A stretch of 64,000 nucleotides of DNA from the NCBI RefSeq assembly GCF_053078305.1, contig NZ_CP166879.1; one strand, 5' to 3'. Every line of letters starts with the position of its first letter. Position 1 is the stretch's first letter. The notes under the pieces were generated by a model. That model was not told where the DNA came from and did not search any database. It saw only the letters and a program-made list of their open reading frames with translations. Positions 17,283-18,829 of the stretch are shown in pieces. The position numbers and the translations under genes were made by a program.

Positions 17283-17609
17283 TCATAACACCGTCGGACA
17301 ACGCAAATCGTAAATCAGCACGGAAACAGAAAACGGCAGCTCCCCCTGAAGCAGTTCTTCCCGCTCCGCAAGATCCGGATTCCGGTACAGCATCCCGGTC
17401 AGTCGCATGGCAGCCCCCTTCATCCGGGTTAATGCCTCGCCCGGGATCAGTTCACCGTCCTCACGAATCACCTTATCCCGGCTGCCCTGAATGTAGGCCA
17501 GCAGCACGGCGGTAGCCTGACGAACCTTGTCCATCAGCATGTCATCATCCGCGTCATGGTCGACACGCAGATGTGCCTTGATCTCTTCCAGTGTCAGTAA
17601 TGCCGTCAT
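17283..17609 (-). CDS. gp6-like head-tail connector protein
   Basis: 108 aa; MTALLTLEEIKAHLRVDHDADDDMLMDK... typical N-terminus. Confidence 0.6.
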   Translation of the reverse strand: MTALLTLEEIKAHLRVDHDADDDMLMDKVRQATAVLLAYIQGSRDKVIREDGELIPGEALTRMKGAAMRLTGMLYRNPDLAEREELLQGELPFSVSVLIYDLRCPTVL

Positions 17610-18829
17610 TTTCCGCCTCCAGCATCCCGCCCACGTTTTGCAGCCAGGGTCCAGCCTGATGAATGAGCTTCTCCGGGTTTATCACCGGTCATACTGTTGC
17701 AGTGCCACAGCGAGCCCCCCCACGTCACCGTATCGCCGGGGTGGTAGGTTTCACCGGCTCTGAACACACCGCGGTAGAGCATCACCGGCAGGGAAAATGT
17801 TTTTTCCGTACGCTGGCCACTGCTCTGCCGGACCACCACAGAGAACAACCGTTCACCCGTCATGCTGACGTCAATATCCGCCACCCCGTCAACCAGGCAT
17901 TCCCATCCCCGCATCCCGTGCGTTTTTTCATACGCCCGCCAGAGTCCGCCCTGGTGTGTGGCATACGTGCCCCGGGGAAAGGATTTTTGATCGTCAATGG
18001 CAGGGAGTATTTCCAGTGCCGTGGCATCACGCCCGTCCTGCGGAGCCGGCAGGGCACTCACCGCATCATTCACCGCCTTCTGCAGAACATCCGGATCATA
18101 GTCACGACCATCACGCGGAACAGGAATATGGCTTACCGCCTCCTTCACCATCTGCTCAAGCATCGGACGCACATCATCCGGGGTGATACTTTTACCGTCT
18201 GCCGGCTGCGGAATATTTGCGACCGCATCATTCACCGCCTTCTGCAGTACTTCCGGATCATAGTCACGACCATCACGCGGAACAGGAATATGGCTTACCG
18301 CCTCCTTCACCATCTGCTCAAGCATCGGACGCACATCATCCGGGGTGAGGCTTTTACCGTCTGCCAGCTGCGGAATATTTGCGACCGCATCATTCACCGC
18401 CTTCTGCAGTACTTCCGGATCGTAGTCACGACCATCACGCGGAACAGGAATATGGCTCACTGCCTCTTTCACCATCTGTTCAAGCATCGGACGCACATCA
18501 TCCGGGGTGATACTTTTACCGTCCGCCGGCTGCGGAATATTTGCGACCGCATCATTCACCGCCTTCTGCAGTACTTCCGGATCGTAGTCACGACCATCTC
18601 GCGGAACAGGGATATGGCTTACCGCCTCCTTCACCATCTGCTCAAGCATCGGACGCACATCATCGCCCGTCACGCACTTCTGTAATACCACAGACAGGGA
18701 AGCCAGTTTTTCTTCAAACGTTTGTGCCTGCGCGGCTATTTTCTCCTCAAATGTGCGCTGTAAATCCGCCAGCACCGCGGAAAATTCTTCACCCAGCGCA
18801 CGGATAATGGACAGTTCACGTTCATTCAT
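17606..18829 (-). CDS. Repeat-containing virion-associated protein (coiled-coil N-terminus, four 44-aa tandem repeats, C-terminal CBM-like domain)
   Basis: 407 aa; repeat DGKSITPDDVRPMLEQMVKEAVSHIPVPRDGRDYDPEVLQKAVNDAVANIPQPA x4; C-terminal ...GETYHPGDTVTWGGSLWHC... Confidence 0.6.
   Translation of the reverse strand: MNERELSIIRALGEEFSAVLADLQRTFEEKIAAQAQTFEEKLASLSVVLQKCVTGDDVRPMLEQMVKEAVSHIPVPRDGRDYDPEVLQKAVNDAVANIPQPADGKSITPDDVRPMLEQMVKEAVSHIPVPRDGRDYDPEVLQKAVNDAVANIPQLADGKSLTPDDVRPMLEQMVKEAVSHIPVPRDGRDYDPEVLQKAVNDAVANIPQPADGKSITPDDVRPMLEQMVKEAVSHIPVPRDGRDYDPDVLQKAVNDAVSALPAPQDGRDATALEILPAIDDQKSFPRGTYATHQGGLWRAYEKTHGMRGWECLVDGVADIDVSMTGERLFSVVVRQSSGQRTEKTFSLPVMLYRGVFRAGETYHPGDTVTWGGSLWHCNSMTGDKPGEAHSSGWTLAAKRGRDAGGGK
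18070..18665. repeat. Four near-identical ~132-bp tandem DNA repeats inside the 17606..18829 gene
   Basis: Visible directly in lines 18100-18630. Confidence 0.85.

Follow-up and report, generated by a model that had tools for sequence, protein, structure and literature searches.

The open reading frame (ORF) at 17606-18829 on the minus strand of contig NZ_CP166879.1 (RefSeq assembly GCF_053078305.1), referred to here as gene X, begins with ATG and encodes 407 aa. All positions are those of the 64,000-nucleotide stretch that was analysed, which we call the window. Comparison with its relatives strongly supports the conclusion that X is an intact, independent structural gene in the head module of a lambdoid prophage, and not a broken piece of the portal gene that precedes it. 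That X is an independent, ancestral gene, with a family and a fold of its own, can be stated with high confidence. As a whole, the best explanation we can offer is that this independent gene acts as a variable-length fibre at or near the portal vertex, a reading to which we would give a little less than an even chance.

A preliminary description of the window had reported a 407-aa product encoded between portal and head-tail connector genes, and both statements hold. The upstream ORF is matched by the HK97-type portal models PF04860 (E = 8e-82) and TIGR01537 (E = 2e-105), both over their full length, and the downstream ORF is a gp6-like connector, the head-tail adaptor Ad1, whose start overlaps the X stop through a second ATGA at 17606-17609. 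The head module as a whole runs in the order TerS-TerL-protease/MCP-portal-X-Ad1-Hc1-Ne1-Tc-MTP. The last portal codons, ATG TTC AGG GGG ATT CTG AAA AAA TGA, spell AMFRGILKK*, and the final TGA shares its bases with the X start. An AGGGGG element resembling a Shine-Dalgarno sequence lies 11 nt upstream of that start, and translation of X from its own ATG is strongly supported.

In related loci, portal and X are either separate or fused, and the two forms are one base apart, in a G-run that precedes the portal stop by 20 nt. With five G's (G5), TTCAGGGGGAT gives the portal end ...FRGILKK*, its TGA overlapping the X ATG. With six (G6), TTCAGGGGGGAT gives ...FRGDTEKM..., which is read in frame into X and accounts for the database 'portal proteins' of 859-861 aa. 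The junction was compared in 87 loci, made up of 80 IMG/VR contigs, eight phage or genome records and the window, minus two contigs that lack the junction. G5 is found in 54 of these loci, in about 16 junction haplotypes, and G6 in 33, in 4 haplotypes. Three outgroups, Salmonella phage FSL SP-016 (SP-016) and the loci L089 and L095, have a portal of approximately 450 aa whose stop overlaps the X start. In SP-016, for instance, the portal ends ATG ATC AGA GGA TTT CTT ACA AAA TGA (AMIRGFLTK*), with the first codon of X (MNERELSL...) at the overlapping ATG. The outgroups have no G homopolymer, the place of AGGGGG being taken by AGAGGA (SP-016) or AAAGGA. Because the outgroup portals share the C-terminus, the stop and the overlap with X, the G5 frame gives the native portal end; the split form is thus ancestral, and G6 is a derived fusion. 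It is strongly supported that in E. coli the Shine-Dalgarno-like element became a G5 homopolymer and that gain of one G then fused X to the portal several times. Parsimony on the 565-nt flanks calls for at least approximately 5 changes between G5 and G6, two of them within identical flanks.

Gene X is intact in 53 of the 54 split loci, and the fused loci mostly keep it intact as well. Among split forms, the median ratio of nonsynonymous to synonymous substitution rates is approximately 0.23, a crude estimate; only the split forms were used for it, since the 405-aa variants are distorted by a 2-aa indel in the fixed-offset codon alignment. Of the 33 fused loci, 6 carry further disruptions of X, against 1 of the 54 split loci; this excess suggests relaxed constraint after fusion, although the disruptions represent only about three independent events. 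Among such disruptions, loss of one G from the G7 homopolymer in the T-W-G-G codons of the C-terminal motif removes the last ~37 aa in L007 (O157:H7 86-24) and L061-L063, and a G5-to-G4 deletion in the repeat region disrupts X in L072. G-runs are recurrent indel sites in gene X. Viable phages carry the split form. Lys8385Vzw, which has a separate 245-aa X, was obtained by plaque purification and grown on E. coli WG5 (PMC7946995), and SP-016 is a temperate phage that was isolated in its free form (PMC3728262); BP-4795 and 1717 are also split. Fused forms, with one portal ORF of 859 or 861 aa, occur in phage 2851, deposited as a complete phage genome, and in an ST131 prophage.

Annotation of this locus is inconsistent, which matters because the locus is common. 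It occurs in 92 phage records and is typical of the long-tailed Shiga toxin (Stx)-converting phages and related lambdoid phages, with carriers including the Pankowvirus phages 2851, 1717 and YYZ-2008 as well as BP-4795. Of 5,426 complete E. coli genomes, 1,245 have it; the query of that scan included part of the repeat, which inflates the number of places per genome, and the genome count alone is used here. The locus is entered as one ORF (2851, the ST131 prophage), as two ORFs (1717, BP-4795) or as a pseudogene. In the case of JNEC-KY171, whose locus is 99.8% identical, RefSeq PGAP gives 'phage portal protein, frameshifted', a pseudogene, and the depositors of WGPS8, F349 and WGPS4 likewise marked portal pseudogenes. 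PHROG 2271, a 'portal protein' family of 859 positions, aligns with the window portal at 1-451 and with X at 455-859. Among the database proteins P0001-P0120, many fused portal-X proteins carry the precomputed Pfam family PF28083.1. The link to the portal, the 'portal/frameshifted pseudogene' label and the large family had all been passed over in the preliminary description. The portal of the Sakai prophages Sp6, Sp9 and Sp12 was scored as defective by Asadulghani et al., who attributed Sp9 packaging and Sp6 transfer to complementation (PMC2669165). If those calls rest on this split, they may need revision. The outgroup evidence suggests that a 'defective portal' call made from the split alone would be wrong.

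The family to which X belongs is large. An exhaustive HMMER search over 1.84 billion representatives of clusters at 50% identity returned 5,657 clusters at E <= 1e-3 and 633 at E <= 1e-30, and most members are stand-alone proteins of 250-600 aa. Gene order was followed in 14 contexts outside E. coli: L089, a JGI contig with P0129, L090, SP-016, the Rhizobium phage RHph_X2_26, L093, L094 and L095 to L101. In all 14, X is either directly 3' of a portal of approximately 450-480 aa (13 contexts) or fused to it (one, P0228); two short contigs have truncated ORFs upstream of X, both of which match as portal C-termini (E = 2e-31 and 4e-16). The P0228 protein (1,237 aa) is a second, independent portal-X fusion, because its lineage is only 40% identical and its junction sequence is unrelated. 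A complete gene before the portal is in every case a protease-capsid fusion of approximately 650 aa; it lies 5' of the portal in L089, L090, L093, L099 and L100, and capsid genes of the same size occur in L091, L092 and L095. Two further features of these neighbourhoods were seen. The capsid fusion gene and the portal flank a small conserved ORF, of 73 aa in the E. coli loci and in L090 (L005 1774-1995, with equivalents in L006-L008, L090, L102 and L103, and at about 20.2-20.4 kb on the minus strand of the window); in the E. coli loci the end of this ORF overlaps the portal start by about 55 nt. Genes of glycosylation type directly follow X, replacing the head-tail adaptor, in L095 (7167-12534), L096 (5294-8186) and L100 (6064-9579); they include LicD-like, MptE/Maf-like, Hexapep acetyltransferase, cytidylyltransferase, methyltransferase and HAD hydrolase genes. 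These cassettes may glycosylate virion proteins, and X might be a target.

The middle of X is a tandem array. Tandem Repeats Finder (TRF) reports a single array at 18060-18664 with a period of 162, 3.7 copies, 95% matches and a score of 1112. Four near-identical tandem copies had been described before and are indeed present, with a unit of 162 bp (54 aa) in place of the 132 bp (44 aa) first given. Units 1-3 are 4-10 nt apart in 162, with 0-2 amino-acid differences, and unit 4 stands 28-35 nt away from them, with most of the differences in its second half. Each 54-aa unit is itself made of two diverged half-units of 27 aa, D[DP]xxxxLxxxVxxAVxxIPxPxDG[RK], and the module that recurs throughout the family is likewise about 27 aa, a helix plus 'IPxPxDGKDxDP'. 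The E. coli unit is a recently amplified pair of these modules, whose number ranges across the family from ~1 (P0232, 214 aa) to more than 20 (P0122, 862 aa). Among intact E. coli-type genes, 3 units are found in 15 split and 4 fused loci, 4 units in 29 and 20, 5 units in 7 and 2, 6 units in one split locus, and 7 units in one of each; Lys8385Vzw has one 54-aa unit and BP-4795 has five. The recent expansion and the copy-number variation between strains that had been expected from the near-identity of the repeats are therefore borne out by comparison across related phages and prophages, which carry 1, 3, 4, 5, 6 or 7 units. It is strongly supported that recombination between near-identical 162-bp units freely alters the number of modules. 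The stalk encoded by the array is acidic (net charge -17, pI 4.5), and the C-terminal domain is near neutral. Pfam hits of the repeats to TetR_C_35, DUF4244, FliG_N, iPGM_N and FeoC were set aside as artefacts, none containing an individually significant stretch and the scores being summed over short helices. Designed helical repeat proteins, found with the whole protein in a PDB chain sequence search at E ~1e-3, were rejected as repeat or composition matches.

Monomer AlphaFold2 models were made of full-length X and of its C-terminal domain. The full-length model has a mean predicted local distance difference test score (pLDDT) of 74.8, combining a confident N-terminal helix, a low-confidence repeat part and a confident C-terminal domain. 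The repeat part is modelled as eight short helices of 13-17 aa with 12-residue linkers between them, at low pLDDT. The N-terminus had been called a coiled coil; it is helical, as a single confident helix over aa 3-52 of the monomer model, and the oligomeric part of that claim stays a suggestion. The C-terminal 146 aa are confidently modelled (pLDDT 92.3 for the C-terminal domain) as a beta fold containing a module of the carbohydrate-binding module (CBM) 5/12 type, with the characteristic small beta fold of CBM5/12 present in the prediction. The motif GETYHPGDTVTWGGSLWHC is located at aa 359-377, a second, degenerate copy lies at aa 287-300, and the core includes GDTVTWGGSLWHC. PF02839 (CBM_5_12) scores the window protein at 20.6 bits, or 24.9 bits for the C-terminal domain alone, against a Pfam cut-off of 26.2 bits, and matches 44 of 54 family members at E <= 0.01, the best at 9.5e-9. 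Among 150 representatives this domain is always at the extreme C-terminus; its mean column identity is 41% in an alignment of 54 diverse sequences, and it is strongly conserved between E. coli and Rhizobium phages. Similar domains in BFVD belong mostly to collagen-repeat, ChiC_BD and tail-fibre proteins. Pfam Collagen tails are found on seven of the 54 homologue C-terminal segments. The window protein ends in ...KRGRDAGGGK and has no collagen G-X-Y repeat; many homologues in alignment A1 run past KRGRDG with collagen-like G-X-Y triplets, and the end motif shared by the collagen-tailed homologues resembles G[RK]DLTQ...G.K[WHY]. Searches of the PDB found no homologue of X among solved structures, and NCBIfam gave nothing meaningful for X or two homologues.

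The traits of X that recall a fibre are the modules numbering from ~1 to more than 20 family-wide, the collagen triple-helix tails of relatives, a C-terminal domain whose like occurs mostly in collagen-repeat, ChiC_BD and tail-fibre proteins, and the glycosylation-type cassettes directly 3' of X in three distant loci. On account of the modular stalk, the collagen tails and the CBM-type knob, an external fibre is our preferred reading: X may be an external, portal-proximal, low-copy virion fibre that binds a conserved glycan, a tentative assignment that we rate at somewhat below an even chance. X would be made in low, portal-like amounts, the overlap of stop and start suggesting such a copy number rather than a capsid-wide decoration. 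Its N-terminal helix would attach it to the virion at the portal vertex or close by, and its stalk would form a fibre of variable length. The distal knob would bind a glycan-type ligand that is conserved, such as a cell-surface polysaccharide or something peptidoglycan-like, and X would then aid adsorption or retention while being non-essential for assembly. By sequence X belongs to no known fibre family, and no decoration family in Pfam, PHROG or NCBIfam matches it (Hoc-like, gpD/Dec-like, phi29 gp8.5 and SPP1 gp12 proteins were the types considered), its strong PHROG matches being labelled 'portal protein' or unknown, and Hoc-like PHROGs match only the immunoglobulin-like domain of the major tail protein within the window.

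Several points weigh against a fibre of this kind. To our knowledge, the C-terminus faces the capsid interior in all solved portals, and X is fused to the portal C-terminus in at least two lineages, one of which includes the inducible phage 2851. A fused X would then be inside the head, which is hard to fit to an external fibre unless the function of X is lost on fusion. The repeat region has low confidence in the monomer model, and the window scores just under the Pfam cut-off for CBM_5_12. That the C-terminal domain is the most conserved part is unusual for a host-range determinant and would suit a conserved phage partner equally well. Literature searches on the long-tailed Stx phages, 2851, BP-4795, SP-016 and Lys8385Vzw found no virion proteomics, electron microscopy or binding data for X or any other member of the family.

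Some of these same points favour an internal protein tethered to the portal, with the N-terminal helix on the inner face of the crown and X extending along the capsid axis, in the manner of the P22 portal barrel or of the portal-bound SPP1 gp7/Mu F. There X would arrange the end of the DNA or leave the head when the DNA is ejected. Fusion to the portal C-terminus would then be nearly neutral. The position of X directly 3' of the portal, with overlapping stop and start, in distant lineages is as expected on this model, as are the two in-frame fusions of independent origin (E. coli G6, and P0228 with its unrelated junction), the frequency of fused forms with X mostly intact (33 of 87 loci), the fused state of phage 2851, and conservation of the C-terminal domain from E. 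coli to Rhizobium phages, as for a conserved phage component or for DNA binding. However, CBM5/12 modules, collagen-like tails and freely varying repeats are hallmarks of external fibres, a net charge of -17 would be unfavourable beside packed DNA, and X has no similarity to Mu F/gp7. The excess of disruptions in fused loci also counts against this model, again with only about three events behind it, and fused forms may be complemented, given that enterohaemorrhagic E. coli (EHEC) carry several such prophages (PMC2669165). We regard an internal location as rather unlikely, though it is the main rival of the fibre. An elaboration of it, in which X would represent an unrecognised class of portal accessory protein that accompanies head modules with a protease-capsid fusion and lies on the inner portal face, with an acidic stalk of variable length and a CBM-like knob, and in which the G-tract in the ribosome-binding site of E. 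coli X would be a heritable switch between free and portal-tethered virion types, is improbable.

Quite improbable, too, is an assembly factor, in which X would bind the portal with its N-terminal helix and the protease-capsid fusion with its C-terminal domain, nucleate the procapsid by bridging the two, and then be degraded or lost. Every context with a complete gene before the portal has the ~650-aa protease-capsid fusion and no separate scaffold gene was seen there, coupling to the portal suggests matched stoichiometry, and such a role would tolerate X fused or free. Against this, ~1 to more than 20 modules and collagen-like tails would be unexpected in a nucleation factor, and no scaffold is known to use a fold of the CBM type.

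Programmed recoding or a contingency switch, in which ribosomes or polymerases would shift frame on the G-run, or in the window also on the A6 run before the TGA, and so yield both free X and a portal-X fusion, or in which heritable G5 and G6 states would give two virion types, is a very improbable account. No stop codon interrupts the -1 frame between the G-run and the X ATG, and a tRNA-Lys slip on AAA AAA TGA would read into that ATG; the repeated G5/G6 changes, twice within identical flanks, and the two other G-run indels in gene X are also compatible with it. The canonical heptamer X XXY YYZ is, however, absent, the window having CTG AAA AAA TGA with six A's after a G, and the outgroups have no homopolymer at all. 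Some G5 or G6 singletons could be assembly errors, and G6 forms are largely clonal. Since the A6 run is specific to the window haplotype, others having CGAAAA or GAGAAA, programmed -1 frameshifting at this run was rejected as a conserved mechanism.

The view implied by RefSeq and GenBank, that the ORF is the 3' remnant of an 859-861-aa portal gene broken by a 1-nt deletion, a pseudogene fragment in a decaying prophage, has on its side the PGAP and depositor labels, the 859-position model of PHROG 2271 and, if they concern this split, the defective scores of the Sakai portals, but can hardly be right when the G5 frame gives the same conserved native portal end, stop included, as in Salmonella phages and phages further removed, both portal models lie wholly within the 454-aa ORF, distant relatives are split except for one fused lineage, split haplotypes are more diverse than fused ones, and X is intact in nearly all split loci, the plaque-forming Lys8385Vzw being split itself.

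Table 1. Features of gene X, its neighbours and the rest of the window (positions in the 64,000-nt window)
Feature	Position	Strand	Basis
Gene X, portal-coupled repeat protein, 407 aa	17606..18829	-	ORF list; homologues stand-alone and directly 3' of portal in distant contexts
Portal gene, 454 aa, complete HK97-type, ending ...AMFRGILKK*	18826..20190	-	PF04860, TIGR01537
Head-tail adaptor Ad1 (gp6-like connector)	17283..17609	-	PF05135, phrog_40
ATGA overlap of portal stop TGA and X start ATG, translational coupling	18826..18829	-	Sequence; same 4-nt overlap in L089, SP-016, L095
Prohead protease-major capsid fusion, 645 aa	20402..22339	-	Peptidase_S78 + Phage_capsid
G5 run (AGGGGG) in last portal codons, Shine-Dalgarno-like element of X, 11 nt before ATG	18841..18845	-	Junction comparison
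N-terminal part of X, aa 1-55, with a single long alpha-helix over aa 3-52, presumed docking/oligomerisation element	18665..18829	-	AlphaFold2, pLDDT ~90
Repeat array, 4 x 162 bp (54 aa), aa 56-271, eight helix+linker half-units of 27 aa	18017..18664	-	TRF, unit-by-unit comparison
Repeat copies 1-4, in order	18503-18664, 18341-18502, 18179-18340, 18017-18178	-	
All-beta C-terminal domain (aa 272-407), the part best conserved across the family	17606..18016	-	AlphaFold2; 150 representatives; 54-sequence alignment
CBM5/12-type module core, aa 357-379	17693..17761	-	
G7 homopolymer in T-W-G-G codons of CBM motif, second indel hotspot	17715..17721	-	Locus comparison
OmpC/OmpF-type porin gene, 384 aa	9193-10347	-	Porin_1, E 6e-144
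NanS-p-like esterase gene (DUF1737-SASA-DUF6645)	28970-30937		
ORF, 331 aa	31961-32956		
tRNA-Arg/Arg/Met cluster	32982-33231		
tRNA-Ser(CGA) and tRNA-Asn	51601-51690 and 52682-52757		
Inverse autotransporter gene, 2,691 aa	52995-61070	+	IAT_beta + 16 Big_1/Invasin_D3 repeats

Elsewhere in the window, the porin gene sits in the tail module, between tape-measure/minor-tail and L/K/I/J-like genes. The NanS-p-like esterase gene and the tRNA-Arg/Arg/Met cluster have what we take to be the arrangement of Stx phages. The 331-aa ORF between them had no Pfam match, and thus no Shiga-toxin A subunit was detected there. Past the prophage lie tRNA-Ser(CGA), tRNA-Asn and the gene for the inverse autotransporter, and the prophage is probably at a tRNA-Ser attachment site.

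New here is an uncharacterised, very widespread, portal-coupled family of fibre-like proteins, for which the correction of annotation and the size of the family are solid and the function is inferred. In this family of more than 5,600 clusters, X would be a new part of the HK97-like virion plan whether it proves to be an external fibre that binds glycan or an internal protein bound to the portal. The carriers include EHEC O157 and non-O157 Stx phages and the ST131 prophage, and the role of X could bear on the adsorption or environmental persistence of Stx-converting phages. 'Defective portal' labels enter into judgements on the viability of Stx prophages, and the evidence suggests that they are wrong where based only on this split. 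The 162-bp array (1-7 copies) and the G-runs are practical markers to distinguish otherwise near-identical lambdoid prophages, and are also likely sources of assembly error.

Several known systems invite comparison. X resembles the HK97-type portal (PF04860, TIGR01537) in that its gene adjoins and is coupled to the portal gene, to which it is fused in about one-third of the sampled E. coli loci. The 454-aa ORF before X nevertheless has the complete portal fold and native C-terminus; X itself matches neither PF04860 nor TIGR01537 and was ancestrally separate, and so is no portal protein. Compared with the chitin- or cellulose-binding CBM5/12 modules of Serratia ChiB, Streptomyces ChiC (ChBD, 2d49), Erwinia EGZ (1aiw) and Bacillus ChiA1 (1ed7), the copy in X is predicted to be embedded in a larger, 146-aa domain and carried on a phage helical stalk rather than on an enzyme. 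SPP1 gp7/Mu F (PF04233) shares with X a gene position immediately 3' of the portal, in the window and in all contexts examined, but PF04233 matched neither X nor ten long family members. The fused forms recall the C-terminal barrel of the P22 portal in that a long helical extension follows the portal C-terminus, although the X stalk consists of short helices with Pro/Gly/Asp linkers, not one continuous helix, and bears a beta-domain knob at its end. The head fibre gp8.5 of phi29 has a repeating helix-turn-helix stalk, and lactococcal neck-passage-structure or collar proteins carry CBMs. The stalk of X has no sequence or detectable fold relationship to these proteins, and the partner to which X is coupled is the portal gene, not a capsid or tail gene, but X shares with them a place among the head and neck genes and the overall design of a presumed N-terminal anchor, a variable repetitive stalk and a knob of carbohydrate-binding type.

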